From a virus: a DNA stretch of 64,000 nucleotides. Of this stretch, positions 20,939 through 54,241 are shown one piece after another; positions within the stretch are counted from its first letter, which is position 1; every line of letters begins with the position of its first letter. The stretch is taken from positions 1 to 64,000 of the IMG/VR virus record IMGVR_UViG_3300042337_000526. The stretch is one strand, 5' to 3'. The notes beneath the pieces were generated by a model. That model saw only the letters and a list, made by a program, of their open reading frames with translations. It was not told the origin of the DNA and did no database searches. The position numbers and the translations under genes are program-made.

Positions 20939-21014
20939 GGGGCGGAAGGTAAGCCGGTTGCATCCGACACTCTTATAAGGTGTTCATAGGTTGGTTCGAC
21001 TCCAACTCGCCCTA
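20939..21014 (+). tRNA. tRNA-Ile(UAU)
   Basis: cloverleaf: acceptor GGGGCGG/TCGCCCT+A73, anticodon stem ACACT-CTTATAA-GGTGT (TAT at 20974-20976), T-arm GTTGG-TTCGACT-CCAAC; CCA not encoded. Confidence 0.9.
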
Positions 21015-23936: not shown

Positions 23937-23939
23937 CAT

Positions 23940-24626: not shown

Positions 24627-24628
24627 AT

Positions 24629-25474: not shown

Positions 25475-25477
25475 TTT

Positions 25478-26880: not shown

Positions 26881-26916
26881 TCTTATTAAAGAAAAAACTA
26901 ATAGAAAGTTTATTGA

Positions 26917-27630: not shown

Positions 27631-28160
27631 GCCGTCTTGAAGAACTTTTAAAATGTAAAAGAATGGATTACGGCTATCCTGTAGACGGTAATTTATTGCA
27701 TGGATTATATGATTTGGTTTGTGATAATATAACAAAAGACAGCACTATAGTAGAGATAGGTAGTTATTCTGGAATTTCGTCAGAATTATTTGCATTATTC
27801 TGTAACAAATTATACTGTGTTGATATTTGGGAGGGTTTCTCCGCACCGGCAGAAAAAACATTTGATGAGCTAATTATTAAATACAACAATATTGTAAAAA
27901 TAAAATTAAATAGTAGCAATGCTGCAAAAATTTTTCAGAATCATTTTATAGACCTAGTATATATTGATGCGGAACATAGTTATCATGCTACTAAAAATTA
28001 TATTCTTTCATGGATGCCAAAGATTAAACCAAATGGAATAATTTCTGGCCATGATTATTATTGGCCAGGAGTAAACCAAGTAGTTAATGAAATATTTTCT
28101 AACAAACAGATTAAAATTTATAAAGATGACTCTTGGCTTGTAAAACTTAATAGCGATTGA
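27627..28160 (+). CDS. class I SAM methyltransferase (Methyltransf_24-like)
   Basis: VEIGSYSG.S, YIDAEHSY, SGHDY. Confidence 0.85.
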   Translation: MSRLEELLKCKRMDYGYPVDGNLLHGLYDLVCDNITKDSTIVEIGSYSGISSELFALFCNKLYCVDIWEGFSAPAEKTFDELIIKYNNIVKIKLNSSNAAKIFQNHFIDLVYIDAEHSYHATKNYILSWMPKIKPNGIISGHDYYWPGVNQVVNEIFSNKQIKIYKDDSWLVKLNSD

Positions 28161-28173
28161 GTCAAGTTTCTGC

Positions 28174-28202
28174 TTGACAACGACGATATTGTATGGTATC
28201 GT
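28174..28202 (+). promoter_or_regulatory. sigma70-type promoter for ligase
   Basis: TTGACA-ACGACGATATTGTATGG-TATCGT. Confidence 0.65.
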
Positions 28203-28230
28203 AGAAGGACACAACAAGGAGAAATTGGGA

Positions 28231-29556: not shown

Positions 29557-29573
29557 AATTTTAGGTAAAATGT

Positions 29574-31562
29574 ATGGTATTATCTATAGACAATTTTAAT
29601 ATCAACACACATTACGATGTTAAAGATAATCAGATATATAATAATCCAATATTTAAGATCAGTTATTGTATAACTTGTCACAACAGAACATGGCAGTTAA
29701 AACAAACTCTTGCTCATAATATTCTAGGTCTTAAAGACGATGAACAAATTGTTTTAGTTAATTATAGCAGTAACGATGGGCTAGACGAGTTTATAAAAAC
29801 TAATCATATACAAAATATTGTAAACAACAAATTAAAATACATATATGTTTGTGATCAAAATTATTATAATTGCTCAATTGCTAAAAATATTGCTCATTAT
29901 TTTGCAGATAGCGAATATGTAGTTAATTTAGACGGCGATAATTTTATAGATGAATTTAGAGCAACTATTGATTACACTATTGGTAACTTCAAAAATAACT
30001 TTATTCTTCATCTAGCCGTTTTGGAAAAAGATTTTCACGATTCCCATAAACAACTAAAAGGATACGAAGGAAGTTTTGGTAGAATTTGCTGTCATAAAGA
30101 AGATTTTATTTCTCTTGGAGGTTATAATGAAAGTTTTTTGCCAATAGCGTATCAAGATTCAGACTTGCTATTACGAGCAATAGCAAAAAAAATGAACTAT
30201 ATTAATATACCTATTAAAACCAAGTGTTTGAAAAATAATAAGAGCATAACCTATAAAACTAAAAACAACCATCAATATTCATGGATCGATTGTAAAAAAA
30301 TTAACCAATTAATTTCAAATTATAATATCTCTAATAATAAACTAATAGCACCAAACATTATAAAAAATTTTAAGTGCTACTTTAATTTGCATAGTACGCC
30401 CGAAAGAATTACTTATAATAATACCAAGGATATAGTATCTGACTGGCAAATAATAGAGCAAACAGAACATACAGAACCATTAGAAATGCAAAATATTATA
30501 GAATTTTATAAATACAATGTATTAGACCAAGAATTTGATAGTAAATTTTATCAGACAAATTATCCTGAAACGATCAACTACTATCAGCCATTTTGTTTAC
30601 AAAATAACGTACCTGAACAACAAAGATTATTTCATCATTATGTCTTATATGGTAAAAAATCTGGCTATCTCAAAAATTTAAAAGACTTTATTCAACAAAA
30701 TCTTTCTGTATTAGATATGACCAAAATAGATACTGGGGATGTGGATCAAATTTATCCAGTATCCCCCGGTTATGTTGAGCAATATATGATACAAACACAA
30801 AATGGTAAGGACATTGCTGCTAAAAGTAAAATAGGCATAGTTTCCTTGGCGAGAAATTGTTCTAAAAATATTATTAAGTCTATAAAAAATATACAAAAAA
30901 TAATATGTAAAGATTGGAGAATGATAATTTATGAGAATGATTCTATAGATAATACAAAAAATCTTTTACAAAGCGTTGAGGATAATAGAATACATACTAT
31001 TAGTATAGACGATAATAGCTCCTATTTAATAGACAGATCGCAAACTAGAACAAACAATTTGGCAAGATATAGGAATTTCTGCATAGACTGGATTGATAAA
31101 AACTATTCAGATTGTGATTATGTTATTGTTTTAGATTTGGATGCTGATCTTGGTTTTTCTATAGAAGGAATTTATAATAGTATTAGTTGGTTAAGTTCAC
31201 TAGACGATGCTGGTGGCATAGGATCGTACTCGCCTCTTTTGTCTATAGAAAATAGTAAAATTGTATTTGTTCACTATGATTCGTTTGCTGTTAGAATGAA
31301 TGATTGGGAACCCATAGTCAATAACAAAGATATTCATAATCCTTGGTTTAAACACTGGCATCCTGTGGTTGGATCAAATCCTGTGCCTATTTATTCTTGT
31401 TTTGGGGGTTTGGCTGTTTATAAAACAAAAGCATTTCTTAAAGGAAGATACGACGGTAATTTAGGATCAGAACATATTGCATTTCATAAAAGCCTCAGAG
31501 ATGAAGGATATAATATGTACTTAAATCCTAGTAGCCGATTTTTTCTATATACAAATCAATGA
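29574..31562 (+). CDS. multidomain glycosyltransferase (GT2/GT7C-like N-terminus + CAP59-like mannosyltransferase C-terminus)
   Basis: NLDGDN, GGYNESF..YQDSDL; central FD..FY...YP...HY..YG module; LARNC, YENDS, LARYRN, VYSCFGGLAVY, SEH. Confidence 0.75.
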   Translation: MVLSIDNFNINTHYDVKDNQIYNNPIFKISYCITCHNRTWQLKQTLAHNILGLKDDEQIVLVNYSSNDGLDEFIKTNHIQNIVNNKLKYIYVCDQNYYNCSIAKNIAHYFADSEYVVNLDGDNFIDEFRATIDYTIGNFKNNFILHLAVLEKDFHDSHKQLKGYEGSFGRICCHKEDFISLGGYNESFLPIAYQDSDLLLRAIAKKMNYINIPIKTKCLKNNKSITYKTKNNHQYSWIDCKKINQLISNYNISNNKLIAPNIIKNFKCYFNLHSTPERITYNNTKDIVSDWQIIEQTEHTEPLEMQNIIEFYKYNVLDQEFDSKFYQTNYPETINYYQPFCLQNNVPEQQRLFHHYVLYGKKSGYLKNLKDFIQQNLSVLDMTKIDTGDVDQIYPVSPGYVEQYMIQTQNGKDIAAKSKIGIVSLARNCSKNIIKSIKNIQKIICKDWRMIIYENDSIDNTKNLLQSVEDNRIHTISIDDNSSYLIDRSQTRTNNLARYRNFCIDWIDKNYSDCDYVIVLDLDADLGFSIEGIYNSISWLSSLDDAGGIGSYSPLLSIENSKIVFVHYDSFAVRMNDWEPIVNNKDIHNPWFKHWHPVVGSNPVPIYSCFGGLAVYKTKAFLKGRYDGNLGSEHIAFHKSLRDEGYNMYLNPSSRFFLYTNQ

Positions 31563-32296
31563 TAAAAAAATATTTTGTAATATACGGAGAAAGAAACAGT
31601 GGAACTAATTATTTAGAAACCGTTCTGACTGGAAAATCTTATCATTTATCATATACGTCTTCTTGTTTTGAAACTATTGTAATTAATTCATCAATTGCAG
31701 AAATTTATAATGATAAATATGGACACAAACATTTTTTTGGATTTTATGATAAAATAATTAAGAACACAAGCAGTAATATTGTATTCGTTGGAATAGTTAG
31801 AAATCCTTATGATTGGATTATGGCTTTAAATAAATCCAAACACCATATTCCTCCAGACAATCAAAATATTGAAAGTTTTGTAAAAAATGAGTGGTATTCT
31901 ATACAACACAACACAAAACACGTTGACTATGGTAGAGAATTCATGGATGACAGAGATTTTACAACTGGGCATCTTCTTGATAACTTATATGGTTATTCTA
32001 ATCTACCAAAACGTTACAAAAATATATTTGATATGAGAAGTAAAAAACTTAGATATTTATTATATACAATGCCAACACTAGTAACTAATTATGAACTAAT
32101 CAAGTATGAAGATTTTATAATGGATCCTACGAGTATACTTACTGAATGGTCTAAAAAATATAATCTTGAATTAAATTCAACATTCATGCCACCAATTAAA
32201 AAAGAAGCCTATCCAATACCAGAAGAAATTAAAAAAAGTATCAATGAGGGAGTAGACTGGGAAATAGACAATAAATTAGGATACTATATTAAGTAG
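31559..32296 (+). CDS. sulfotransferase-like protein
   Basis: GERNSGTNYL (5'-PSB loop-like), KH, VRNPYDW, YEDF. Confidence 0.65.
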   Translation: MIKKYFVIYGERNSGTNYLETVLTGKSYHLSYTSSCFETIVINSSIAEIYNDKYGHKHFFGFYDKIIKNTSSNIVFVGIVRNPYDWIMALNKSKHHIPPDNQNIESFVKNEWYSIQHNTKHVDYGREFMDDRDFTTGHLLDNLYGYSNLPKRYKNIFDMRSKKLRYLLYTMPTLVTNYELIKYEDFIMDPTSILTEWSKKYNLELNSTFMPPIKKEAYPIPEEIKKSINEGVDWEIDNKLGYYIK

Positions 32297-37058: not shown

Positions 37059-37062
37059 ATAT

Positions 37063-37137
37063 GGGAGCGTAGTCCAATTGGCAGCAGACAAAGGACTTAA
37101 AATCCTTCCAGTGTGGGTTCGACTCCCACCGCTCCTA
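37063..37137 (+). tRNA. tRNA-Leu(UAA), short variable loop
   Basis: acceptor GGGAGCG/CGCTCCT+A73; anticodon stem AAGGA-CTTAAAA-TCCTT (TAA 37098-37100); T-arm GTGGG-TTCGACT-CCCAC. Confidence 0.88.
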
Positions 37138-37170
37138 TTTGTAGAATGATAATTATCGAAAGGAAAACCA

Positions 37171-39339: not shown

Positions 39340-42000
39340 ATGAAGTTGGCAGATCGCGTTATTGAGACTCATAGTGCTGGTGTTCGTAGCGAGTCTGGTT
39401 TTACAATCGCTCAGACTAGCAAAATGTTTAAAATCCTTTCGGACTCTCTTTATTCCGATAAGGTGATGGCAGTTATTCGTGAACTGTCTACTAATGCTTA
39501 TGATAGTCATATTAGTGCTGGTAATAAGAATCCCTTCAAGGTGATCTTGCCAACATCTGCTAATCCTTCTTTTACCGTGCGTGATTATGGCACTGGTCTT
39601 AGTCAGGGAGATATGGAGAACCTGTATACAACTTACGGTGCTTCTAATAAGAATGATAGCAACGATTTTGTAGGTTGTCTTGGTCTTGGTAGCAAGAGTC
39701 CGTTTGCTTATACCAAGAGTTTTACCACCAGTTCTTATTTTAATGGAACTAAGTATACTTATATCGCCGCTATTGATGACAGCGGTGTTCCTACTCTGAA
39801 TCTTTTTAATACTTGTGAAACTGATGAGGCTAATGGTCTTGAAATCAGTTTTGCTGTTAAGAACCATGATTTTAGTGAGTTTACCAATAAGGCTATCAGG
39901 ATTTTCCATTATTTCCGAATGAAACCTATTATTGAGGGTGGACTTGGAGATAATCTGCAAGATCATAAGTATAGCAATACTAATATTGTGATCAGCGGTA
40001 ATGGCTGGAGAGTTTGCAGACTTAATAACGATACTCAGTATTATCCTAATAATTATCATCGTATTGATAGTGGTGTTGTTGCTATCATGGGAAATATTGC
40101 ATATCCTGTTCAGACCGCTCAGATTATTGGTCAGGAAAAGGAAGATCAACCAGATCATATTGCCAAGTGGAATAGGGCTTTCCAGAAAGCCGATATTGAT
40201 TCGTGGAAGAGTTTCGTTACTGAGATCATTAACTCTGGTCTTTATCTGGAACTTGATTTTGGTATTGGCGAACTGGAAATGGACGTTTCCCGTGAAGGTT
40301 TGCAGTATACTAAGAGCGTTATTAAAACTCTGCGTCAAAAGACTCAAGAGATTTATCTTGAGATGAAGGATGAATTTAGTAAGAAGATTTCTGCTGCTAA
40401 GACCAAGATTGAGGCTATCACAACATATTATCAGATGAATGAATTGTCTGGTGGATGGGGTGTTGGTGCATCTTGGACTGACCCTAATGGTAAGAGCCAC
40501 AATATTAATAGTGGTGCTGACCTTGAATATAAAATCAAGGCTGGCAAGAACCTGTACGTTTTTAATTACAAGAGCAGCGGGTATCGTTCACGACGCCTTA
40601 TTTCTCTAACAGACAAAATCCATCATGATACTCTTACTGGTAAGGGATATTCTTACTGGAATAGTCAGAAGAAGAATGGGAAAATTGCTTTTTTTGTTTG
40701 TGACGTTAAGGGTGAAGAAACTGCCAAGAAGATTGTGACACGTTATTGTAATCAAAATGATTGTTTTGCTTACATGATTATGGACACAAAGGATCATACT
40801 CAAAGCGACAAGGGTTTTGATGATCTGATTAATGATGTCGGTAGTGAGAATCTGCTCAAGGTTTCTGATTATAAACATCTTACTCAAAGTTCTGGCCCTC
40901 GTAAAAGTGGAGTCAGAAATAGTAATGGTAGTGTGAGCGATCAAGATATATTCTTTATTCATGGTCAGTCTAAGGATTCTGGTAAACTTAGTGTCGAATA
41001 TAACGATGCTCTTAGTTTGAAAACTCTTACAAGTGACGAACTAGACGAATTGAGTGATAGTGATTCTATCATTTATGTTCCTATTCTTCGTTATCAAAGC
41101 ACACCAGAGTTTCCTAAGATTAATAATATTGTATCGCTATTTGATAATGAGAATATCAAGGGACTATTTGGAGATGTGAAGGTTTATGCTATCAAGAGCA
41201 ATTTTGTAGCAAAAATGACCAGTGAAGGACACAATCTTGTTGACTTTAATACTTGGTTTAAAAAGATTCTCTCAACAAAGATTAAGAGTTATTTTAACAA
41301 TACCAATGAGTACAACTCTATTGTTGAATTCTACAAAAAGGAATTTATCAGTAAGGATGGTGATAACGATAATTATTATTACAATCATGGAACATTGGTT
41401 AGTCAGTTCTCTTGTCATATGTTGAGTATTTTTGGTCTTGAATATAAGAAATATATCAAGAATACTGAACTATCCAATATTATTGATAGTTTTCTTGTAA
41501 TGGAATTCTTTGCCGATACTATGCACAGAGCAACTTTTGATCTGAAACGATTCTCTCAGACTGAATATTTTGACCATATCAACTCTTTGCTCAAGGATCG
41601 AGGTATTGATCATCTTGATAGTAAGGAACTCAAGAAGAAAAATGTACAATATAACACTCTTATAAATATTCAACATCAGATGTTTGACCATTCTGATGAT
41701 ATTGAGGGATATACTAAATTGTTTAAGTCTGATGCTAAAGCAATCAAGTATAATTTGACCAAAGCGGCAGACTTGAAGAAAATTCTTAAAGTCGAGGTTG
41801 ACAAGAACCCGATGCTGAAGTATATTATGGGAAGCAACCAGATTAATGGCAATCTTAGAGATTTGGACAGCAAGTATAATCCTATCTCTCAATTTGCTGA
41901 TAATTATTATGGTAAGAGAAATAATGCTGTATGGGTTGAGAGTATGGATAGCGACAAGGTTGAATTGTTTAAGATTCAGTTGAGTAGTTTGATCAAGTAA
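39340..42000 (+). CDS. rIIA: rIIA-like protein (N-terminal GHKL ATPase)
   Basis: LSDSLYSDK.AVIRELSTNAYD, VRDYGTG, GCLGLGSKSPFAY; adjacent to rIIB-like gene. Confidence 0.85.
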   Translation: MKLADRVIETHSAGVRSESGFTIAQTSKMFKILSDSLYSDKVMAVIRELSTNAYDSHISAGNKNPFKVILPTSANPSFTVRDYGTGLSQGDMENLYTTYGASNKNDSNDFVGCLGLGSKSPFAYTKSFTTSSYFNGTKYTYIAAIDDSGVPTLNLFNTCETDEANGLEISFAVKNHDFSEFTNKAIRIFHYFRMKPIIEGGLGDNLQDHKYSNTNIVISGNGWRVCRLNNDTQYYPNNYHRIDSGVVAIMGNIAYPVQTAQIIGQEKEDQPDHIAKWNRAFQKADIDSWKSFVTEIINSGLYLELDFGIGELEMDVSREGLQYTKSVIKTLRQKTQEIYLEMKDEFSKKISAAKTKIEAITTYYQMNELSGGWGVGASWTDPNGKSHNINSGADLEYKIKAGKNLYVFNYKSSGYRSRRLISLTDKIHHDTLTGKGYSYWNSQKKNGKIAFFVCDVKGEETAKKIVTRYCNQNDCFAYMIMDTKDHTQSDKGFDDLINDVGSENLLKVSDYKHLTQSSGPRKSGVRNSNGSVSDQDIFFIHGQSKDSGKLSVEYNDALSLKTLTSDELDELSDSDSIIYVPILRYQSTPEFPKINNIVSLFDNENIKGLFGDVKVYAIKSNFVAKMTSEGHNLVDFNTWFKKILSTKIKSYFNNTNEYNSIVEFYKKEFISKDGDNDNYYYNHGTLVSQFSCHMLSIFGLEYKKYIKNTELSNIIDSFLVMEFFADTMHRATFDLKRFSQTEYFDHINSLLKDRGIDHLDSKELKKKNVQYNTLINIQHQMFDHSDDIEGYTKLFKSDAKAIKYNLTKAADLKKILKVEVDKNPMLKYIMGSNQINGNLRDLDSKYNPISQFADNYYGKRNNAVWVESMDSDKVELFKIQLSSLIK

Positions 42001-42036
42001 TTCACAAGGTAACTAAAAACAATAGGAGTTTATATC

Positions 42037-42897
42037 ATGAGTGTTCCGTTTATGTTTGTCGATGGTAATCTGACAGTTGTGCTGAACAACAAGAGTTTTC
42101 AAGTTCTGCCTGACCACCTTAACTACAAGATGATTCTGGAGGCATTGCCTACTGCAACATCTGACGAGTTGATTGAAATGATTGATATTGAGAAGGCGGT
42201 TGCTACTTTTAGTGACGGTCTTGTTGAGATCAAGAATGGTCAGGTAACTTATGAGGGTGAGGTTGTTCATGGGTCGATTAGCAAGAGAATTCTGGAGTTT
42301 ATGAGCAAGGGTCTGCCTTTTCAGCCTCTTGTTAATTTCCTGAATAATCTTATGGGTAATCCTAGTATGCAAAGTCAAAAGGAACTCTATGATTTCCTTG
42401 AGCATGAGCATCTGCCCATTACTGAGGATGGTTATTTCCTTGCTTATAAGGCAGTCAGAGCAGATTACATGGACAAATATCGCGGAGTATTTGATAATCA
42501 TGTTGGTAATGTTTGTGAAATGACCCGATCAAAGGTTGATGATGATCGTGGCCGAGGTTGCTCTAATGGGCTTCATGCTGGTGCATTGAATTATGTGGCC
42601 GGTTATGGCAGTCTTGAAAATGGCGATAAGATCGTTATCGTTAAGATTAATCCTGCTGATGTTGTGAGTGTTCCTAGTGATTGTAACTATGAGAAACTTC
42701 GCACTTGCCGATATGAAGTTGTCGGAGAGTATCAAGGCGAACTTCTCAAGCCTCTTTATTCATCTGTCTTTAGTGAGGATGATTACGAGGATGAGGATGA
42801 AGATTATGATAATGATTATGATTGGGGATGGAATGAGGATGATGACGAAGAGGCTTATGCTGAAGATGATGAGGAAGATTACGACGATTATAACTGA
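42037..42897 (+). CDS. rIIB: rIIB-like protein
   Basis: LYDFL...PIT.DG.FLAYK.V..DY.D, VDDD....CS.GLH, VKINP.DVVSVP.D...KLRTCRYEVVGE. Confidence 0.88.
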   Translation: MSVPFMFVDGNLTVVLNNKSFQVLPDHLNYKMILEALPTATSDELIEMIDIEKAVATFSDGLVEIKNGQVTYEGEVVHGSISKRILEFMSKGLPFQPLVNFLNNLMGNPSMQSQKELYDFLEHEHLPITEDGYFLAYKAVRADYMDKYRGVFDNHVGNVCEMTRSKVDDDRGRGCSNGLHAGALNYVAGYGSLENGDKIVIVKINPADVVSVPSDCNYEKLRTCRYEVVGEYQGELLKPLYSSVFSEDDYEDEDEDYDNDYDWGWNEDDDEEAYAEDDEEDYDDYN

Positions 42898-42910: not shown

Positions 42911-42996
42911 AGTGGAGTCTGGTGACTAAGATAATAGCCTCTGGTTGGGAAACTCAACAAACGCTATTTGAGAGAGGTTCAATTCCTCTCCCGCTA
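42911..42996 (+). ncRNA. tRNA-like RNA without canonical anticodon arm
   Basis: T-arm AGAGG-TTCAATT-CCTCT; acceptor-like AGTGG/CCGCT+A; mini D-arm GTC-TGGT-GAC; central AATAGC/GCTATT helix. Confidence 0.5.
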
Positions 42997-44266: not shown

Positions 44267-44677
44267 ATGAACAATCAAGAATATCCAGAAAATAATGATC
44301 CTTATAAATTCTACTTTCAGATAGATACTGAATGGGTTAAGAAATATATGGATAGTCTGCTTAATAAGATAGAATATAAATGGATAACTAAGGATATTAT
44401 AGAGGATGTGTTGAATAAACTACCTCAATATAAGGTTGAACCTGTTGATGGATTTCCGTTTGTTTCGTTACCTGTGAATGATTACTTCTCCAATACAGCG
44501 GGGGATAAAACCTCCCTGTATTTGGGGAATAATCATTACAACGAAGGAATATGGAAAATTAAATATTTTGTTTATAAGAAACTTCAAAAAGAATATGAAT
44601 TACATTTACAGGCTCATGCTAAACATGTGGTTAGTCAGCCAAGATATTACGAATGTTTATTTGAAATACTTAATTAG
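44267..44677 (+). CDS. hypothetical protein
   Basis: ORF track. Confidence 0.7.
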   Translation: MNNQEYPENNDPYKFYFQIDTEWVKKYMDSLLNKIEYKWITKDIIEDVLNKLPQYKVEPVDGFPFVSLPVNDYFSNTAGDKTSLYLGNNHYNEGIWKIKYFVYKKLQKEYELHLQAHAKHVVSQPRYYECLFEILN

Positions 44678-44685
44678 GAAGACTT

Positions 44686-45120
44686 ATGAAAGATAACTGG
44701 TATGTAATTCACGACATGGATGCGTTCACTAACCACGCCAGAGTATTAGTTTATAATGCTTTTGGCAGTGGTTTATCGGAAGATAAAGATGATCCAGAAA
44801 TTGATGATCTAATATCTGTTAAGCCAGAAGATAAGGATGAATTAGATAAAATATTATCTTTTGAAGAATCTTTGAATATCACAACCCAAATCGTTAAAAA
44901 ACAGAAAAACAAAAAGACAAATAGTATACGATATGTTGTAAACGATATTATATTTTCAGAAGTATTAGATTCTTTGAATGACAGAATGGTGAGTAATCTG
45001 TTGAATAACTTGGTAAATAAGGGAGTTCTTGAAACGGGATTTGATAATGAGACTAATGATTTCCTATTTTGGATAAAAGAAAATGATAAAAACAAATCTG
45101 AAAAGCCAGAAACCGATTGA
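44686..45120 (+). CDS. hypothetical protein, paralog of 20305..20724
   Basis: WYVIHDM...LNNLVNKGVLETGFDNETNDFLFW. Confidence 0.7.
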   Translation: MKDNWYVIHDMDAFTNHARVLVYNAFGSGLSEDKDDPEIDDLISVKPEDKDELDKILSFEESLNITTQIVKKQKNKKTNSIRYVVNDIIFSEVLDSLNDRMVSNLLNNLVNKGVLETGFDNETNDFLFWIKENDKNKSEKPETD

Positions 45121-45493
45121 GACTGATGCCTCTTTTAAATATCAGTGTCCTTCAGAAGATTGTAATAATAAACATTGGCTATTTATAAGACAGGCTCAGG
45201 TTAAAAACTTTAAGATAGTCTGTGAGTGTGGTTTGGTTTTCAAGCCAAAACAGATAAAACATATTAAAATAATTTACGAAAAGCCCAAAAGGAAACGAAA
45301 GACATCAGAAGATATTGTTGATAGTATTCCTGTTGACCTTTTGAATCAATGTGCTAAAGTTCTGTCTGGCTATGGATTTGATTTGGACGAGTCTAAAGAA
45401 TTAATTAAGCAATCATATAATTCTTGCAAGACTAATGATATTGGATCTTTAATTAAAAACGCTTTAAAATCTTTTGGAGAAAAAAATGGCTAA
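45083..45493 (+). CDS. Zn-ribbon + RuvA C-terminal domain (domain III)-like fusion
   Basis: CPSEDC...CECG N-terminus; C-terminal QCAKVLSGYGF..DESKELI...SLIKNALKS matches RuvA_C pattern A..AL..LGY...EA...V....LIR.AL. Confidence 0.65.
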   Translation: MIKTNLKSQKPIETDASFKYQCPSEDCNNKHWLFIRQAQVKNFKIVCECGLVFKPKQIKHIKIIYEKPKRKRKTSEDIVDSIPVDLLNQCAKVLSGYGFDLDESKELIKQSYNSCKTNDIGSLIKNALKSFGEKNG

Positions 45494-46397
45494 AGGTATT
45501 CGACCATCAACTTTTGACGAGATCATTGGACAGGATAATGTCAAAGAGCGTCTACGAGTCTCTGTGAGGGGTTGTAAAAACACAGGCACGGTGATGCCTC
45601 ACGTTTTAATAGACGGCCCTCCTGGCCTTGGAAAGACCACCATAGCGAGTGCCATAGCCAACGAGTTGGGGGTGAACCTTTATACCACCAATGCGGCAAA
45701 CATACGCAGCATCAAAAATATACTTCCGTATATTATGGGTATTGAGCCAAGATCAGTTTTGTTCATTGATGAAATCCACAGATTGCCTAAGATTGTGGAA
45801 GAATTTCTATATCCGATCATGGAAGATTTTGTTCTTAATATTACTGTTAAGAATGACGAAGATAAAGATGTTCCAGAAACTATTGATCTGCCAGTATTTA
45901 CTGTGGTTGGGGCCACAACTAGTGGCGGAAGTTTAAGTCAACCCTTTTATGATCGTTTCTGCATTAAAGAACATTTATCTTTTTATAATACTGATGATCT
46001 AGCTAAACTAGCAAGGTTGAACTCGTCTAAATTAGGGGTAGTCATAGAGGATTGCGACCTCTTGGAGATTGCTAAACGAAGCAAAGGAACTCCACGAATT
46101 CTAAATGCTAGATTGCAGTGGTATAAGAACTATATGTCTTGTAATCCTGATAAGGTTATTTCTATAGATGAGATATTTAATGTTCAAGGTATTGATCATA
46201 ATGGTCTTGATATTTATGACAGGTTATATATTGATATCTTGAAAAAGAGTAAAGGATCCCCACTTGGATTAAAAGCAATATCATCAATGACAGGCATCGC
46301 CATTGAAACCATTGAGAATAGTATTGAGCCTTTTCTTGTTAGACGAGGATATGTAATCAGAACCCAAAAGGGAAGAGTCTTAGGATCTCAACCATAA
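45486..46397 (+). CDS. ruvB: Holliday junction branch-migration ATPase RuvB
   Basis: RP.TFDEIIGQ, GPPGLGKTT, FIDEIHRL, GATT...L..PF.DRF, RSKGTPRI, IEPFL...RT.KGR. Confidence 0.93.
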   Translation: MAKGIRPSTFDEIIGQDNVKERLRVSVRGCKNTGTVMPHVLIDGPPGLGKTTIASAIANELGVNLYTTNAANIRSIKNILPYIMGIEPRSVLFIDEIHRLPKIVEEFLYPIMEDFVLNITVKNDEDKDVPETIDLPVFTVVGATTSGGSLSQPFYDRFCIKEHLSFYNTDDLAKLARLNSSKLGVVIEDCDLLEIAKRSKGTPRILNARLQWYKNYMSCNPDKVISIDEIFNVQGIDHNGLDIYDRLYIDILKKSKGSPLGLKAISSMTGIAIETIENSIEPFLVRRGYVIRTQKGRVLGSQP

Positions 46398-46434: not shown

Positions 46435-46460
46435 AAAGGGGCCTTTTTGGCCCCTTTTTT
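46435..46460 (+). terminator. intrinsic terminator
   Basis: AAAGGGGCC-TTTTT-GGCCCCTTT followed by T tract. Confidence 0.88.
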
Positions 46461-46471
46461 ATTGGCATGGT

Positions 46472-46815: not shown

Positions 46816-47817
46816 ATGAGTAAAGGTTTAGATGTTGGAACTAGTTATATTGTTTTATCTCAAGATTCTAAAGATGGCATCGTCTATAAAGATTTTAGGG
46901 ATGCTTTCTATATTATAAAACCAACTACTCCTGTTGCAACCAAAATGATTGAAAAAGGACTATCGGGAAAAGTTTTTGTTAAGGATGCAGACGGATCATT
47001 TTTAATTTTAGGTAAGGATGCCATAGAAAAAGCCATTGAACGTAACGACAACGCTAAAAGACCCATGAGCAAAGGCGTTGTGTCTGCTAAAGAGAAGGAC
47101 GCAAAGCGTGTGCTGGCTTTCATTTTAAAAGAAGTGGCTGGTCAGGCATCAGAACTAAATGAAAAACTGGTATTCTGCGTACCCGCACAGCCTGTTGATC
47201 AAGAAGATGAGGATTTTGACGTTGGATATCATGAAGATGTAGTCAAGGCCATTTTGGGTGAATGTGGATATGATGCTAAAGCCATTAATGAGGCTGAAGC
47301 TTTATGCTATGCTGAATTGGGTGATGAAGATTATACTGGTATTGCCGTATCATGTGGTGCAGGAATGACTAATGTTTGTGTTATGTTGAATGGTGAACCA
47401 ACGGTGGTATTTAGTACAACAAAGTCGGGCGATTGGGTAGATCGTATGAGTGCTGTTGCAACAGGAGAAAAGGATAGTGTTGTTCAAGCCGAAAAAGAAG
47501 GTGGTGGATTTACAATTGGCGAACATAGTGATAATCCTGTTTTATCTGCTGTATCTTCATATTATGAAAGATTAATTGATTATACTACTAAACAATTAAC
47601 AGCAGCATTATCTGATCATAAAGCACTACCAAAATTTAAAAGCCCATTAACCGTTGTTGTTGCTGGTGGAACTTCTCAAGCAAAGGGTTATGTTGAGAAT
47701 TTTACTAAAAAACTATCAGAAAATAATTTTCCTTTACAGGTTAAGGTAGTCAAGCACGCCTCAGACCCCTTACATGCGGTTTCTAAAGGTTGTTTAATAG
47801 CAGCAAAAGTTCTTTAA
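46816..47817 (+). CDS. actin-fold ATPase, volactin-like
   Basis: GLDVGT (phosphate 1), INEAEA (connect 1), SCGAGMTNV (phosphate 2), GDWVD, VAGGTS (adenosine), AVSKG (connect 2). Confidence 0.85.
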   Translation: MSKGLDVGTSYIVLSQDSKDGIVYKDFRDAFYIIKPTTPVATKMIEKGLSGKVFVKDADGSFLILGKDAIEKAIERNDNAKRPMSKGVVSAKEKDAKRVLAFILKEVAGQASELNEKLVFCVPAQPVDQEDEDFDVGYHEDVVKAILGECGYDAKAINEAEALCYAELGDEDYTGIAVSCGAGMTNVCVMLNGEPTVVFSTTKSGDWVDRMSAVATGEKDSVVQAEKEGGGFTIGEHSDNPVLSAVSSYYERLIDYTTKQLTAALSDHKALPKFKSPLTVVVAGGTSQAKGYVENFTKKLSENNFPLQVKVVKHASDPLHAVSKGCLIAAKVL

Positions 47818-47829
47818 GGATTATTTAAA

Positions 47830-48036
47830 ATGATTCCGAATAAAAAAATAAAATCAGATTGTTTTAAATGTACACAAGGACCAACACCAACACCAACAAG
47901 AACTCCTAGACCAACAATTACTCCTAGCAGAACGCCAAAACCAACAATTACTCCTAGTAGAACAAATAGGCTTATTACTCCAACACCAAGTTCTAGCTAT
48001 AATATAAAAATAAAAACTTTAAATTTCATACCATAG
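47830..48036 (+). CDS. short Thr/Pro-rich protein with KIKSDC motif
   Basis: ORF track; shares N-terminal motif with downstream large ORFs. Confidence 0.6.
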   Translation: MIPNKKIKSDCFKCTQGPTPTPTRTPRPTITPSRTPKPTITPSRTNRLITPTPSSSYNIKIKTLNFIP

Positions 48037-48077
48037 GATATGTATGATACTACAATAATCTTTGAGATTTTAATGTT

Positions 48078-49853
48078 ATGAAAATAAAATCAGATTGTTG
48101 TGGTGGAAAATGGGTAGTCAATAAAACACCAACACCAACCCAAACACCCAAACAAACAGTAACACCAAGCATAACAGTTACAGCAACGCCATCGTCAATA
48201 AGCGGTGACACTCCTACTCCAACGCCAAGCATAACAGTTACAGCAACGCCATCATCAACAAGCGGCGACACTCCTACTCCAACGCCAAGCATAACAGTCA
48301 CAGCAACGCCATCGTCAACAAGCGGCGACACTCCTACTCCAACGCCAAGCATAACAGCCACAGCAACGCCATCATCAACAAGCGGTGACACTCCTACTCC
48401 AACGCCAACGATAGGCAGTACTCAAACACCAACCAGAACAACAACCAACACTAACACACCCACCAAAACAATCATAAACACAAAAACGCCAACACCAAGT
48501 GTCACGCCAAGCATTAGTTTAAGCCCTACTGTTACTCCCACTATAACAAACACGCCCACTATAACGGTTAGTATTAGTCCAACAAAGAGTACTACTCCAA
48601 GCGTAACTCCAACGGTCACTACTACGGTAACAAACACCCCAACAGTAACTCCAACCATAACATCGAATTTTGCGCAACCAATAAACATAAAATGCATAAC
48701 CGATATGGGCAAGCAGTGGGGAATAACCTATAATGTAAGAGATTATTCTGTTGTGTATGGGCTAGATTCTGGAGCACAATGGAGAAACATAGCTTCTGAA
48801 GAATATCCTTATTCAATAGTTCAAACAGAAACAACCATAAAAAACTCAATTGATTTTGAAATAAATGAACCATTAATGATATTTGTCGCACAGACCACAA
48901 GTTCTTCTGATGGCATAACTGATAATTACATATTAAAACAAAAAACAATTAATAAAAATAATAAAAACATATTAGTTTTAGATTGTATAGATAAAAATAA
49001 AACACAAATTGAAAAATCAGATAAATTTAATTCTAAATATGCTCCTGCTAATTTTAATGTTTTAGTATATGGTTCTATGTGTGTTGTAGATTGGTCCTAT
49101 CCAATTGAAGCACCTAGTCGATTTGATACACCTAACTTGTATAGGCTGAATATGTCTAGCACAAATGATCTTTCAAAGATAAAACAAATCGACTCGTGGC
49201 TAACTGGAGATTTTGATCTAGAAAATAGTTTTATTATTAAACCGGGTGGTGGAGGTTTGAGCGTTCTTACATCGTTTACTGTTTTTTGTAAAAGGCCTGA
49301 TTATAATCCTAAAGCGTCTTTTATAACTGTGTTTGCAGACTATAATAGGCCTGTTGATTTAAACATACAAGATCCTTGGGATATGAATAATAATAATGGC
49401 AAAATTTGGCCTGCGGGGTCTTATGCTATTATATGGGGCGATAGTTCACCTTATGATACTGTATCAACGATTGCCCCAAAATTGACAACGGCCCCACTTA
49501 CATCGTACGATGGCAGGATTAGGATGGTGTGGAATGGATCATCATACAGAGTTGCTCAAATGATAAACATAAATGGAGTATGTTTAGATAATGATTTTAA
49601 TTATTATAGAATTGGAATGTATAAATATAATGCAAGTACTATGGAATATGATTTTTATAAAGCTGTTAAAATTAGAAAAACAGTATTAAATCAGATTTAT
49701 AGCTATGAATTTGACAACATTCTTAACGGACTTTATAAGGTGTATGTCTTTGCAGACTATAGCGTGGATGATGGTGCGTTTGGTGATAATATTGATCCAT
49801 TTTCAATAACATCTACCATAGCTTCTAATGTTTTTATTTATTCAGTAATATAA
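48078..49853 (+). CDS. Thr/Pro/Ser-rich (mucin-like) putative virion surface protein
   Basis: KIKSDCC N-terminus, about 190-aa T/P tract, beta-rich C-terminus. Confidence 0.75.
   Translation: MKIKSDCCGGKWVVNKTPTPTQTPKQTVTPSITVTATPSSISGDTPTPTPSITVTATPSSTSGDTPTPTPSITVTATPSSTSGDTPTPTPSITATATPSSTSGDTPTPTPTIGSTQTPTRTTTNTNTPTKTIINTKTPTPSVTPSISLSPTVTPTITNTPTITVSISPTKSTTPSVTPTVTTTVTNTPTVTPTITSNFAQPINIKCITDMGKQWGITYNVRDYSVVYGLDSGAQWRNIASEEYPYSIVQTETTIKNSIDFEINEPLMIFVAQTTSSSDGITDNYILKQKTINKNNKNILVLDCIDKNKTQIEKSDKFNSKYAPANFNVLVYGSMCVVDWSYPIEAPSRFDTPNLYRLNMSSTNDLSKIKQIDSWLTGDFDLENSFIIKPGGGGLSVLTSFTVFCKRPDYNPKASFITVFADYNRPVDLNIQDPWDMNNNNGKIWPAGSYAIIWGDSSPYDTVSTIAPKLTTAPLTSYDGRIRMVWNGSSYRVAQMININGVCLDNDFNYYRIGMYKYNASTMEYDFYKAVKIRKTVLNQIYSYEFDNILNGLYKVYVFADYSVDDGAFGDNIDPFSITSTIASNVFIYSVI
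48162..48407 (+). repeat. in-frame tandem repeat, 60 bp x4
   Basis: unit encodes TPSITVTATPSSTSGDTPTP. Confidence 0.9.
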
Positions 49854-49861
49854 GGGCTGGT

Positions 49862-52800
49862 ATGAATAACAAAATTAAATCAAATTGTTGTGACTGTGTA
49901 ATAATTTCTCCAACACCAACACGCACACCAAGACCAACAGCAACACCAACAAAAACCCCAAAACCAACAGTAACTTCAAGTCGAAAACTTAAAGTTCCAA
50001 CTCCAACGCCAACCACTTCGCTGAGAGCAACAGTAACGCCAACAGCCACGCTAGGAGCAACAACAACACCAACAACCACGCTAAGAGCAACAGTAACGCC
50101 AACAGCCACGCTAGGAGCAACAACAACACCAACAACCACGCTAAGAGCAACAGTAACGCCAACAACTACGCTAAGAGCAACAACAACGCCGACAACCACG
50201 CTAGGAGCAACAACAACGCCAACATCAACATTGCAAAGAACAGCAACTCCAACTCTTACGGTCACACCAACAAAAACAACCGAATCATTGACATGTCCAC
50301 CTATAGATTCATGGCCTATGGGTATGGTTGGCTATCAAAGAGAGGCTGGTATGTCCATTGTTGGTTTAACATCTGGAGCAATAAGAACATCGAGCACAAC
50401 AAGAACAGAAGGACAATATCAATGGACATTTATCAAGGCTTTAGGACCTAATCCACAACAAGGAACAATTACTTCCGCAGAATTATTTGTTAATGATGCT
50501 GGCAGTAATAATATTCCGTTCATTATTGGAGAACGCATAACAGTATATACTATGGCTCTAAATATACAGAATCATAACGGAACATACTATTTACATAACT
50601 ATAGAATTATTGATTCGCCAGATGGTCAATTGGGAGAGATAACGGTATCTTGTAGTCAATTAAGTCAAACGACTTTAACACCAACTCCAACAGCCACGCT
50701 ACAGCAAACACCAACTCCAACAGCCACGCTACAGCAAACAGCAACTCCAACAGCCACGCTACAGCAAACACCAACCCCAACTAAAAGATCACAGTCAGGA
50801 GGAGCATTTCCAGCAGCTCCTTCTAATCTTGTTGCTCTGGAGGGTAACCTAGCAATTGACCTTAGTTGGGATGCTCCGGTCAGTATTAGACCAGGAGATA
50901 CAGGATATGCATTCGCACACAGAGTTAAAGGAGCAGCTAATTGGATATACTATGGTTATAACACTTTAAACGAAAGAAGAAAAATTATCACAGGACTAAT
51001 TAACGATACAGAGTATGAGATAAAAGTTGGAACAACTAGTGGCGGACCATTTGATAATGCTGTATGGTCAGTGCCAATATTTGCTACGCCAACAGCACAA
51101 AATATTCCGCCAACTCCGCTTAATCTAATCGCTCTTGAAGGCAACCAAGCAATTGACCTCAGTTGGGATGCTCCGGCAAGCATTAGGCCAGGAGATACAG
51201 GATATGCATTCGCACACAGAGTTAAAGGAGCAGCTAATTGGATATACTATGGTTATAACACTTTAAACGAAAGAAGAAAAATTATCACAGGACTAATTAA
51301 CGATACAGAGTATGAGATAAAAGTTGGAACAACTAGTGGCGGACCATTTGATAATGCTGTATGGTCGTTGTCAATCTTTGCTACGCCTCGTAGCGGAGGT
51401 GGCGGAGGATCATCGCCCATTAACGGTACTCCTAGTAATATAGATTCAATTATTGTTACTGATACATCACGATCATCCGTTATGGTTTCGTGGACGGTTC
51501 CAGTTAGCGCCGGGAGTTCTGAAATAACAGACTATATACTGGAATACAGTAGTAATAATAAAGCCTCATGGACAACCGCAAGTCGTCCAGCTGGAACAAG
51601 CACAAAAGCTGATATTAATTTAGGAAACGCTGTCTACTTTTTTAGAGTAGCAGCGGTAAATAAAGCGGGACGTGGGCAGTATTCGACAACTTCTGATGGT
51701 CATGCTAAGCCCAGCAAAGTTATTATTCCAACCACAAGACTTAATCCCGTAACAAAGATTTTTATGCTTTTACTAGGCAAAACTAACGACCTATATTTAG
51801 ACGATGATACGGTAGGATTTGATGAGCAACAGAGTTTACAACAAGTATTTAGTAATGCAACCCCTTTTGATGCCATGGAGCGACCCGACCGTTGGTTTTA
51901 CACAGATAAAATAACTCTTGGAAATCCCCCACTTAGATCTCTTTGGAGATTAACAGATGGGAAGACTGTAAATAGATTTTTTAGTATTAATGATATTAAG
52001 GTTGGAATGGGAGTTAGCGCAGCAGGTATTCCGTTCGGCACGACCGTTAAAGCTGTTGATATTTATAATAACAGAATTACTCTTAGCAAAGAGCTTCGTA
52101 CAGGATCACCTAATTTGATACTCACCGGTGGCGGAGATCCTAGTCCGGTAATAATTACTCTACCAGAAGCCGAAAGTAATTTTTATCAGAGTATTTATGC
52201 AACTGACACAACGGTATATGCCGGAACGAACACTGGTTTAAAAATATCTACGTTAGATGGACTTGGTTGGAATACTTTCACTACAGTTAATGGTTTAGGA
52301 AATAATGTAGTTAGAGACGTTTATGTTATTGATACTACTATCTATGCGGCAACCAATGGAGGTTTGAGTATCTCAAATGATAATGGATTAAATTGGACTA
52401 ATTTTACTACAGAAAATGGTTTATCTAGTTCTGTTGTGAAAAAAGTTTTTGTTGATAATAATAAAATTTATGTTGCAACAGCTAATGGGATAAGCATCTC
52501 TAACAATAATGGATTAAATTGGACTAATTTTACTACAGCAAATGGTTTGGGTAGCAATGAAATAAGAGATATTCAAATTATAAATAATAAAATTTATGCA
52601 GCAACCACCGCTGGGGTCAGTATATCTAGTAACGATGGATTAACATGGACTAATTCGACTACTTCTAATGGTTTAGGAAGCAATAGTATTCAAAAAATAT
52701 ATTGCGTACAGAATACTATATATGCAGCTACGGACAATGGACTAAGTATTTCTACTAACGATGGTTCAACTTGGGTTAACCGTAATGAATATGATGGATT

Positions 52801-54241
52801 AGCCGGAAATAAAGTTATAAATGTTTATACTAAAAATAATAAGGTTTATGCATTAACTGATAAGGGTTTTTATGATTCCAGTGACTTAGGTAATAATTGG
52901 AGATATGAAGGATTTGGGTTAAGCTATAATTCAATATATAATTCTAAAATTAAAGATTTTAAAGTAATAAGTACAGAAACCAAAGAAATTCCCAGACTCA
53001 CAGTTTATAGAGGTATTTCAACGAACTACAGAGGTCAGGTCGAAATCTCTTATGATACAGGAGCAACTTGGAAATCAACAGTACTAACTGATATCCAAAC
53101 TTTTAAAGTGATTGACAATTCAATTTTTGCAATTACCGATAAGAATTTATTACTTTCAAATGATGGTGGAGAAAGTTTTAATAGTTATTCTACGCCAGGA
53201 ATTTTAAATAGCAATTTATTTGTTGATAAAACAAAAATTTGTATATCATCTTTAAACGGATTGCATATTTCAACAGATAACGGGGTTAGCTTTAGCACTA
53301 AGACAATGAGTGATGGTTTGGGTTCTAATCTAGTACGAGACGTATATGCATCCGGTAATACTATTTATGCCGCTACTAGTAACGGCTTAAGCTTTTCAAT
53401 AAATAATGGTTTGACATTTGATAATATTTTATCTGATAGTAGTAACCCTAATGATTATAGTCTCTCTTCAAATAATATTCGTCGTGTATATTTAGATACT
53501 GTTAGACGCAGACTCTATATTCAGAACGACAAAGGTATACAAGTTAATGATGGTCCATTAGACGAAAATGGAATACCTTTACTAACTCTGGCTCCTCTGC
53601 TTAATGGAAATTTGCAAATAGAACTATTGAGATGGAGTACATTATCCGACGATACAGGAGAGTTATCAAAAAATTATTTTTATTCACAAAAATGGAGAGG
53701 ACCATATGCATTTTCTCCATCAGGATATTTACCGTACAACGGTGTGCTCAGCGGGACGGTCGATTTTCCCAAAGGAAGACCACAGCCTGTGCCTCCGTTA
53801 ATACCTATAATTAGGGCTACAGCAGTTGATCCATTATATCCATTTGATCCCAATAGCCACATTCCTGCAACAGCCGCAAACTATGCTACGGATTATCCTC
53901 CTCCTGTAATGGGTCCGGTTCCTGCTAAGCCGATAATTCCAATAAATGTAAGATGCTATAAACCATCAACAGCACCCTTATCAGCAGAGGTGTTATGGTC
54001 AACTGATAACTTTAATGACGTAAAAAGTTATTTTGTAGAATATAAAAATATAACACTCCAATCTAATTGGACAAGATATTCAAGCAATATTCCAAAATCA
54101 ACTAATGTTGGTATTTCAAGTTCAAGTGAGTCTTCAGTCAGAATACCAATAAACCACCTACATAAGTACATATTTAGAGTTGGAGCAACCAACGCTAAAG
54201 GACAGTCATTCGTCCAAGAGTCAAATATACTTGATCCATAA
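49862..54241 (+). CDS. large putative virion fibre/adhesin: T/P tracts, FN3 domains, Asp-box/BNR propeller
   Basis: KIKSNCC N-terminus; FN3 (P.NL.A..G...I.LSWDAP...Y...V) x2 plus further FN3 modules; repeated S.D.G..W..FT..NGL. Confidence 0.8.
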   Translation: MNNKIKSNCCDCVIISPTPTRTPRPTATPTKTPKPTVTSSRKLKVPTPTPTTSLRATVTPTATLGATTTPTTTLRATVTPTATLGATTTPTTTLRATVTPTTTLRATTTPTTTLGATTTPTSTLQRTATPTLTVTPTKTTESLTCPPIDSWPMGMVGYQREAGMSIVGLTSGAIRTSSTTRTEGQYQWTFIKALGPNPQQGTITSAELFVNDAGSNNIPFIIGERITVYTMALNIQNHNGTYYLHNYRIIDSPDGQLGEITVSCSQLSQTTLTPTPTATLQQTPTPTATLQQTATPTATLQQTPTPTKRSQSGGAFPAAPSNLVALEGNLAIDLSWDAPVSIRPGDTGYAFAHRVKGAANWIYYGYNTLNERRKIITGLINDTEYEIKVGTTSGGPFDNAVWSVPIFATPTAQNIPPTPLNLIALEGNQAIDLSWDAPASIRPGDTGYAFAHRVKGAANWIYYGYNTLNERRKIITGLINDTEYEIKVGTTSGGPFDNAVWSLSIFATPRSGGGGGSSPINGTPSNIDSIIVTDTSRSSVMVSWTVPVSAGSSEITDYILEYSSNNKASWTTASRPAGTSTKADINLGNAVYFFRVAAVNKAGRGQYSTTSDGHAKPSKVIIPTTRLNPVTKIFMLLLGKTNDLYLDDDTVGFDEQQSLQQVFSNATPFDAMERPDRWFYTDKITLGNPPLRSLWRLTDGKTVNRFFSINDIKVGMGVSAAGIPFGTTVKAVDIYNNRITLSKELRTGSPNLILTGGGDPSPVIITLPEAESNFYQSIYATDTTVYAGTNTGLKISTLDGLGWNTFTTVNGLGNNVVRDVYVIDTTIYAATNGGLSISNDNGLNWTNFTTENGLSSSVVKKVFVDNNKIYVATANGISISNNNGLNWTNFTTANGLGSNEIRDIQIINNKIYAATTAGVSISSNDGLTWTNSTTSNGLGSNSIQKIYCVQNTIYAATDNGLSISTNDGSTWVNRNEYDGLAGNKVINVYTKNNKVYALTDKGFYDSSDLGNNWRYEGFGLSYNSIYNSKIKDFKVISTETKEIPRLTVYRGISTNYRGQVEISYDTGATWKSTVLTDIQTFKVIDNSIFAITDKNLLLSNDGGESFNSYSTPGILNSNLFVDKTKICISSLNGLHISTDNGVSFSTKTMSDGLGSNLVRDVYASGNTIYAATSNGLSFSINNGLTFDNILSDSSNPNDYSLSSNNIRRVYLDTVRRRLYIQNDKGIQVNDGPLDENGIPLLTLAPLLNGNLQIELLRWSTLSDDTGELSKNYFYSQKWRGPYAFSPSGYLPYNGVLSGTVDFPKGRPQPVPPLIPIIRATAVDPLYPFDPNSHIPATAANYATDYPPPVMGPVPAKPIIPINVRCYKPSTAPLSAEVLWSTDNFNDVKSYFVEYKNITLQSNWTRYSSNIPKSTNVGISSSSESSVRIPINHLHKYIFRVGATNAKGQSFVQESNILDP
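50021..50226 (+). repeat. in-frame tandem repeat, 30/60 bp units
   Basis: alternating LRATVTPTAT / LGATTTPTTT. Confidence 0.85.
50681..50780 (+). repeat. in-frame tandem repeat, 30 bp x3
   Basis: CCAACTCCAACAGCCACGCTACAGCAAACA (PTPTATLQQT). Confidence 0.85.
50891..51366 (+). repeat. FN3 duplication, 297-bp period with 179-bp identical core
   Basis: 50891-51069 equals 51188-51366. Confidence 0.9.

Follow-up and report, generated by a model that had tools for sequence, protein, structure and literature searches.

A probable natural cut-down RuvAB from an uncultured lake-water phage, with a RuvA domain III homologue joined to a zinc ribbon

The mini-RuvA/ruvB locus

The window analysed here, a 64,000-nucleotide stretch of viral DNA (positions 1 to 64,000 of IMG/VR record IMGVR_UViG_3300042337_000526), encodes a RuvB together with a small partner of 136 amino acids which we call mini-RuvA, and in which a well-supported homologue of RuvA domain III is joined to a zinc ribbon that stands in place of the rest of RuvA. 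The two genes close a run of four (44267..46397), all on the same strand:

44267..44677, plus strand: conserved upstream gene, 136 amino acids, function not assigned; part of the same cassette (open reading frame list and IMG/VR loci)
44686..45120, plus strand: conserved upstream gene, 144 amino acids, acidic, function not assigned; present in 80 of 80 loci
45083..45493, plus strand: mini-RuvA gene, 136 amino acids (open reading frame, homologue family, AlphaFold2 model)
45476..45479, plus strand: GGAG, a Shine-Dalgarno-like motif inside the mini-RuvA coding sequence, 6 nucleotides before the ruvB ATG
45486..46397, plus strand: ruvB (Pfam RuvB_N, AAA_lid_4, RuvB_C)
46435..46467, plus strand: terminator-like hairpin (46435-46457; 9 pairs, 6 of them G-C) and T run, 38 nucleotides past the ruvB stop

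The original prediction had the mini-RuvA gene overlapping the start of ruvB, and so it does: the TAA stop (45491-45493) falls within ruvB, giving an overlap of 8 nucleotides (ATGGCTAA). We take the ruvB start to be the ATG at 45486, rather than the TTG at 45474 given in the open reading frame (ORF) list, because homologues begin MxNxIRP. The end of the 144-residue gene overlaps the start of mini-RuvA by 38 nucleotides; gene order is conserved, and the genes are translationally coupled. A partner gene lying directly upstream of ruvB and overlapping it is also the arrangement of bacterial RuvAB (compare the ruvA/ruvB overlap of Wolbachia). Eight terminator-like sites occur in the region where 1.7 are expected, and the hairpin after ruvB is the strongest of them.

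Within the 38-nucleotide overlap (45083..45120) the two reading frames give ...EKPETD at the C-terminus of the 144-residue protein and KSQKPIE in mini-RuvA, and both are conserved. In two loci where these genes do not overlap (L050 and L063) the upstream protein lacks KPETD and mini-RuvA retains KPxxxD, so the upstream motif may be a by-product of the overlap.

A mini-RuvA/RuvB fusion made by frameshifting at the run of seven A residues (45480-45486) was considered and rejected: the overlap geometry differs among loci, and no fused proteins were seen. Nor were longer or fused forms of mini-RuvA (239-2000 amino acids) found, although this is weak evidence.

Conservation of the pair and of its neighbourhood

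Relatives of mini-RuvA at 40-97% identity are encoded in 80 IMG/VR loci. In 78 of these ruvB lies directly downstream, and the other two loci end before ruvB would be reached; the same gene order recurs in three distant relatives (27-37% identity) at the weak end of the listed profile matches. The search for synteny that the original prediction proposed thus finds the pair conserved. Across the loci RuvB varies less (69-98% identity) than mini-RuvA. The recurrent cassette consists of rIIB, an optional primase-like gene, the 136-residue and 144-residue upstream genes, mini-RuvA, ruvB, a small gene, and an actin-like gene.

Two complete relatives of the phage carry RecA/UvsX-like, endonuclease VII-like, and DnaB genes. 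A role for RuvB as the replicative helicase was therefore rejected, since the DnaB of these relatives leaves no need for one; and with a recombinase and an endonuclease VII-like resolvase both present, ordinary branch migration is the simplest job for the pair.

Several neighbouring genes of the window deserve mention in their own right. A T4-like ORF of rIIA size (886 amino acids, no Pfam match) is followed by an rIIB homologue (PHROG 609, 2.4e-71) with an extremely acidic Asp/Glu/Tyr tail (39340..42897, plus strand). Two genes after ruvB lies an actin-fold protein of the Volactin family (46816..47817, plus strand; PF25216, 4.2e-64, full length), a family described from haloarchaea. Many related phage loci have the gene at this same place, and the phage collection matches it only in two uncultured megaphages (33-35% identity; genomes of 485 and 595 kb); an actin-like filament protein carried by a phage may merit attention by itself.

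The phage RuvB

The RuvB is genuine and intact, as judged from its sequence, and looks active. Specifically, i) Pfam RuvB_N matches at 166 bits (cut-off 27; 7.5e-49) over profile positions 1-159 of 159, AAA_lid_4 at 34.5 bits (cut-off 27; 1.7e-08), and RuvB_C at 62.4 bits (cut-off 24.7; 3.9e-17); ii) in comparison with six bacterial RuvBs, Walker A (GPPGLGKTT), Walker B (DEIH), the MEDF acidic pair, sensor 1 (ATT), the arginine motif (DRF), and sensor 2 (GTPRI) are all invariant; and iii) the winged-helix RT..GR motif is retained, and the presensor-1 hairpin segment is present. Domains, catalytic motifs, and hairpin are thus like those of bacterial RuvAB (E. coli/S. typhimurium; T. thermophilus 1IXR and 1IXS; 7PBL-7PBT, PMC9477746), but the phage protein has neither the N-terminal extension nor the C-terminal tail of bacterial RuvB and so is about 30 residues shorter. 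Close relatives are many in a large protein collection; the best 120 share at least 74% identity with it and are about 300 amino acids long, and contigs of 100-240 kb are the source of many of them.

It is otherwise with the top matches to RuvB in the phage collection. Seven top-ranked records were examined (MK448681, MN180249, CAKLQF020000007, OR844993, OR846600, OR846825, and MT835478, several of them marked UNVERIFIED), and all are pieces of bacterial chromosome or host genes flanking a prophage: ruvA lies directly upstream of ruvB in 6 of the 7, Javan141 has ruvB without ruvA, and where the records are annotated, housekeeping or other host genes stand beside ruvB. We rejected these matches as phage RuvBs; the records seem to be host DNA or contigs assigned wrongly to phages.

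Mini-RuvA: family and architecture

The mini-RuvA ORF is no chance reading frame: clustering its homologues at 90% identity leaves 41 groups, and at 50% identity there are 437 representatives that reach E<=0.001 (245 of these with E<=1e-10). Nearly all of the 150 matches listed span the full-length profile, a few being shorter or confined to the zinc ribbon part. The family is essentially viral, because a scan of 185,579 species genomes with a shallow family alignment (A1, 22 sequences) gave a single match, on a 1.1-kb contig of an alphaproteobacterial metagenome-assembled genome from Lake Lanier, which is too short for a host to be named. The window protein taken singly matches little: DUF7911 at E=0.037 was the only Pfam match and phrog_36664 at E=0.024 the only PHROG match, and tblastn against 50,697 phage records gave no match at E<=1.

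A deeper alignment (A3, 143 sequences) and structure prediction divide the protein into three parts:

45083..45277, plus strand: residues 1-65, basic four-cysteine zinc ribbon (C22, C27, C47, C49), with conserved Y20, H31, W32, F43, K44, K56, and Y65
45278..45331, plus strand: residues 66-83, flexible linker (here KPKRKRK...), with a predicted local distance difference test (pLDDT) score below 50 at residues 72-77, and variable in the family
45332..45490, plus strand: residues 84-136, three-helix bundle (84-96, 101-114, and 120-134), the RuvA domain III homologue

The AlphaFold2 model (pLDDT 82) has a beta zinc ribbon at residues 17-55, disorder at 66-83, and three C-terminal helices; modelled alone, the ribbon domain reaches a pLDDT of 88. 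In the models the ribbon consists of strands 17-21 and 30-34 and short strands around C47-C49, with two cysteine knuckles, CPxxxC ... CxC. The motifs first noticed in the sequence are all in place: CPSEDC at residues 22-27, CECG at 47-50, KPKRKRK at 67-73, and, towards the C-terminus (residues 84-130), ...CAKVLSGYGFDLDESKELIKQS...IGSLIKNALKS. C22, C27, C47, and G98 are invariant in the deep alignment, C49 is present in 142 of 143 sequences, and P11, Y20, H31, W32, and E103 are nearly invariant.

A basic linker had been part of the original prediction, which stands for this phage and fails as a trait of the family. The linker varies from 7 to 60 residues among relatives, with no consistent charge (mean net charge about +0.6), so the basic linker is local to the window phage; the basic part of the family is the ribbon itself (mean net charge +6), and the bundle is slightly acidic. 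Fold matches to the ribbon are generic only, the best being ZitP (Z 3.2), followed by LysW and ribosomal S27e, and Pfam matches among the relatives are scattered singles.

Homology of the C-terminal bundle to RuvA domain III

That the C-terminus lines up with RuvA domain III was the central claim made from the sequence, and it has held up against profile searches, profile-profile alignment, fold comparison, and the relatives; we regard the homology of residues 84-136 to domain III as well supported by sequence comparison. Specifically, i) when the deep profile was searched against 177,635 distinct PDB sequences, 1ixs_A (domain III of T. thermophilus RuvA, from a crystal with RuvB) came first at E=3e-4 and 1ixr_A followed at 0.0024, RuvA supplied 7 of the 10 top matches, and 12 sequences were listed at E<=10, none of them a ubiquitin-associated (UBA) domain; ii) the shallow profile gave six matches at E<=10, five of them RuvA domain III, with 1ixs_A leading; iii) hhalign of the deep alignment with a six-species RuvA alignment, built from bacterial ruvA genes adjoining ruvB in mislabelled "phage" records, gave a probability of 87% and P=4e-6 over residues 145-198 of the 201 in RuvA, and the shallow alignment gave P=2.6e-5; and iv) the real hhalign score of 40.9 compares with 12.7 for the reversed alignment and at most 18.4 for 40 column shuffles, while the two neighbouring gene families, used as controls, gave P=0.6 and 0.96.

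Fold comparison points the same way. The top 10 Foldseek matches of the bundle are all RuvA, 1ixs_A having a TM-score of 0.76 and a root-mean-square deviation (rmsd) of 1.8 over 48 residues, with E-values of 0.3-1.7. VIA, which is independent of Foldseek, ranks 2ztc_A first (Z 7.2, rmsd 2.0 over 51 residues), 7pbp_G second (Z 6.9, rmsd 1.6 over 48), and 1ixs_A and 1ixr_B fourth and fifth (Z 6.1), UBA domains trailing below the RuvA entries at Z 4-5. The fold scores are modest because the domain is small. ESM Atlas matches, at scores of 0.79, are no more than leads; in one viral cluster among them, 50% of the members carry RuvA_C.

The proposed check against Pfam RuvA_C came out both ways: the window protein has no match at E<=1, but 11 of the 143 relatives match the family directly (E<=0.01; best 3.2e-5), the next family being matched by only 2. 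Since the window protein misses RuvA_C, the homology rests on the profiles and on the relatives.

Conservation falls on the positions that matter in RuvA. L94 (L or M in 140 of 143), Y97 (Y, F, or L in 139), G98, F99 (F or Y in 142), E103, and L128 (L or I in 135) align with E. coli RuvA L167, L170, G171, Y172, E176, and L199, and some relatives read SLGY, as bacterial RuvA does. E. coli L167, L170, Y172, and L199 are hydrophobic positions that contact RuvB. According to PMC2628435, which cites Nishino 1998, the substitutions L167A and L170A abolish RuvB activity in vivo and leave junction binding unaffected.

Could the bundle instead be a generic UBA-like fold with some other partner, its likeness to RuvA being convergent or simply too weak to carry meaning? 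The bundle has few residues, Z scores of 4-5 are reached by UBA, CUE, and EF-Ts domains as well, and neither the Pfam result for the window sequence nor a Foldseek E-value above 0.3 would discourage the idea. But the profiles single out domain III from the whole set of PDB sequences without listing one UBA domain, the shuffled and neighbouring-gene controls fail, 11 relatives reach RuvA_C by themselves, and the gene occupies the exact position of ruvA in bacteria; we consider an unrelated protein very unlikely.

RuvA domains I and II, and a canonical RuvA

The absence of RuvA domains I and II from mini-RuvA, also claimed at the outset, is borne out. Pfam finds in it neither the domain I oligonucleotide/oligosaccharide-binding (OB) fold (PF01330) nor the domain II helix-hairpin-helix (HhH) motifs (PF14520), and the hhalign alignment covers RuvA 145-198 only, leaving no aligned region for either; where domain I would sit, residues 1-65 model as a zinc ribbon. 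The 136-residue protein is not a RuvA, but a domain III homologue on a new body. Unlike bacterial RuvA (about 200 residues), in which domain I provides the OB fold and tetramerisation and domain II the DNA-binding HhH motifs, it has a basic four-cysteine zinc ribbon; like bacterial RuvA, it carries its domain III on a flexible linker and conserves the equivalents of L167, L170, G171, and Y172.

We asked whether the two upstream genes might be diverged domains I and II of a split RuvA, and rejected the idea: hhalign finds no RuvA likeness in the 144-residue protein (P=0.6; no significant PDB or Pfam match) or in the 136-residue upstream protein (P=0.96; no PDB match), and neither has a PDB match below E=0.17.

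A canonical ruvA elsewhere in the genome was also sought. A RuvA hidden Markov model (HMM), run over all six frames of the window, gave nothing significant, and in two relatives rated 100% complete by CheckV (223 and 224 kb; G001 and G002) we found no RuvA_N, RuvA_C (at Pfam level), RuvC, or RusA, while controls in well-known genomes were positive. A six-frame scan of the same two genomes for RuvA_C gave no match at E<=10, and HHH_5 gave a single sub-threshold match, elsewhere in G002. The pair thus also differs from bacterial RuvAB in lacking, in these two relatives, any RuvC that could be found.

A probable docking adaptor for the phage's own RuvB

In bacterial RuvAB, domain III sits on a hydrophobic surface to which both helix alpha3 and the presensor-1 hairpin of RuvB contribute. 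From there it keeps the motor attached to the core of RuvA and junction, acts as a nucleotide-exchange factor by prising RuvB subunits apart so that ADP is released, and stimulates ATP hydrolysis at a distance (PMC9477746). On balance we think it probable, with moderate confidence, that mini-RuvA is a minimal RuvB docking and activating adaptor, with its ribbon on DNA, serving phage recombination. The C-terminal bundle would dock the phage's own RuvB, the basic zinc ribbon would stand in for the OB-fold and HhH domains of RuvA, and the ribbon would, we infer, anchor the complex by way of the flexible linker, either to DNA itself or to a partner that is bound to DNA; RuvB hexamers would thereby be loaded and kept active, and the pair would supply branch migration between the RecA/UvsX-like recombinase and the endonuclease VII-like resolvase. 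The domain architecture, the domain III homology, the intact RuvB, the conserved and coupled gene order, and the lack of a canonical RuvA in relatives are results; physical binding, RuvB activation, DNA binding by the ribbon, and the role in recombination are inferences.

A complex of RuvB with mini-RuvA residues 78-136, each entered as an alignment, was predicted with ESMFold2. The complex has an interaction prediction score from aligned errors (ipSAE) of 0.53, whereas the best of three controls scores 0.00; no interface was reported for the complex, the runs share at least 88% of their contacts, and the pLDDT of the partner is at least 81. Of 80 solved complexes 58 attain the same ipSAE mark, as do 2 of 110 mismatched pairs; among those that attain it at 0.60 or under are only 7 of the 80 solved complexes but both of the passing mismatches. 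Because a like complex has been solved (1IXS and the 7PBL series), the score may reflect likeness only. We take the prediction to raise the case for binding modestly.

Several points weigh against this interpretation. The complex prediction supports binding weakly; the window's own protein misses RuvA_C, and an HMM of six RuvA sequences gives it only E=0.31; fold scores of Z about 7 and Foldseek E-values above 0.3 lie within the chance range for small helical bundles; the best fold match of the ribbon, ZitP, is a protein-binding finger, and no ligand is indicated; RuvA is a junction-shaping tetramer, and an adaptor that is probably monomeric may not support true branch migration; and the complete genomes searched for a canonical RuvA are those of relatives (41-45% identity in mini-RuvA) rather than of the window phage itself. 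Use of a host RuvA is also possible.

The original prediction had the motor re-targeted: domain III would recruit RuvB, and the ribbon would direct it to a target that is not a Holliday junction. Such a target could be duplex DNA, a fork, some specific site, the 144-residue product, or the neighbouring primase-like protein, RuvB then serving as a general double-stranded DNA translocase or remodeller. Domains I and II, the source of junction specificity in RuvA, are gone; what replaces them is a basic zinc ribbon of small size that gives no sign of a junction-shaped oligomer and has a protein-binding finger as its top fold match; and the gene always follows two conserved genes and is overlapped by them, with a primase-like gene nearby. 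Yet there is no positive evidence for any other target, the upstream proteins show no recognisable DNA-junction or RuvA-like features, the recombinase and the endonuclease VII-like resolvase make and resolve junctions that need branch migration, and with DnaB present RuvB is not needed as the replicative helicase. We judge such re-targeting unlikely. Worded a little more broadly, the idea that the ribbon turns RuvB into a differently aimed motor, a monomeric adaptor supplying only tether and nucleotide exchange and the ribbon choosing the target, whether DNA (duplex or forked) or a protein encoded in the co-translated cassette, is a minority possibility to which we would give slightly more room. 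If it were true, the family would be a natural experiment in which domain III alone runs the RuvB converter, and the swap of one small domain would suffice to re-address an AAA+ RuvB (AAA+, ATPases associated with diverse cellular activities).

A further suggestion is that the bundle is directed at the host, binding host RuvB so as to hijack or inhibit host RuvAB, and that its adjacency to phage ruvB reflects shared ancestry only. Isolated RuvA domain III reportedly binds RuvB and modulates it in vitro. The RuvA-RuvB interface, moreover, tolerates cross-species pairing (PMC9477746). But adjacency, overlap, and co-termination with phage ruvB are strictly kept across 27-97% identity, which speaks for a shared job, and a pure decoy would have no need of an invariant zinc ribbon; of the alternatives this is the most improbable, and we hold it for a very long shot.

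Returning to the docking adaptor, three known systems offer comparisons. The isolated domain III fragment of 1IXS likewise lacks domains I and II and still contacts RuvB, and it is both the best sequence match and among the best fold matches for the phage bundle; but that fragment is man-made and has no DNA-targeting part, whereas the phage protein is natural, conserved, and equipped with a zinc ribbon. UBA/UBX adaptors such as p47 for p97 (UBA domain 1v92 at Z 4.3) also couple an AAA+ ring to its substrate through a tethered helical module; they share the UBA-like fold class only, and since motor, docking site, and substrates all differ, the likeness is one of analogy. Finally, phage T4 has UvsX, UvsW, and endonuclease VII, and the relatives of the window phage likewise carry RecA/UvsX-like, endonuclease VII-like, rIIA, and rIIB genes. 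T4 uses UvsW for branch migration; in the window phage, by contrast, that slot would be filled by an AAA+ RuvB ring and its adaptor, not by a superfamily 2 helicase.

Source and novelty

The source of the window is an uncultured lake-water phage. Almost the same DNA recurs in 20 metagenome runs of lake water or fresh water (2016-2024), with no RNA run listed among them, and no cultured phage is close, the nearest cultured-phage match to rIIB having 43% identity.

The original prediction knew of no description of this architecture, and our full-text literature searches likewise found no phage RuvB partner of such design. The mini-RuvA/RuvB pair is, on this reading, a natural cut-down RuvAB. RuvAB being a textbook recombination motor, a large natural family that retains only domain III, with a zinc ribbon in place of the junction-binding body, offers a minimal system for what domain III does alone, and raises the questions of whether RuvB can migrate junctions without the RuvA tetramer and how an AAA+ ring might be re-aimed. 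In annotation, a name is now available for 437 clusters of "hypothetical proteins". A survey of jumbo phages found phage RuvC uncoupled from a RuvB-like ATPase (PMC7824862); by contrast, an abundant freshwater lineage here pairs RuvB with endonuclease VII.

Other features of the window

Downstream of the actin-like gene, three ORFs of 68, 591, and 1459 amino acids (47830..54241, plus strand) start with KIKSDC or KIKSNCC and continue into long Pro/Thr-rich repeats, followed in the longest by repeated beta-rich modules; none of the three has a PHROG match, and they may be surface or fibre proteins. A sugar-modifying block (23118..32296, plus strand) encodes family 25 and family 2 glycosyltransferases, an NAD-dependent epimerase, a PLOD-type glycosyltransferase, and a DUF6734 protein, and surrounds an ATP-dependent DNA ligase (28174..29556). 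In the spacer between rIIB and the primase-like gene, a hairpin resembling a tRNA T-arm (GAGAGGTTCAATTCCTCTC; 42972..42990, plus strand) was not called as a tRNA by ARAGORN, and Rfam gave nothing near its gathering score; it may be a tRNA remnant or merely a terminator-like hairpin. Two tRNA genes are found in the window:

20939..21014, plus strand: tRNA-Ile (anticodon TAT)
37062..37138, plus strand: tRNA-Leu (anticodon TAA)

Both tRNAs read A-ending codons, which fits a genome of 27-39% G+C.

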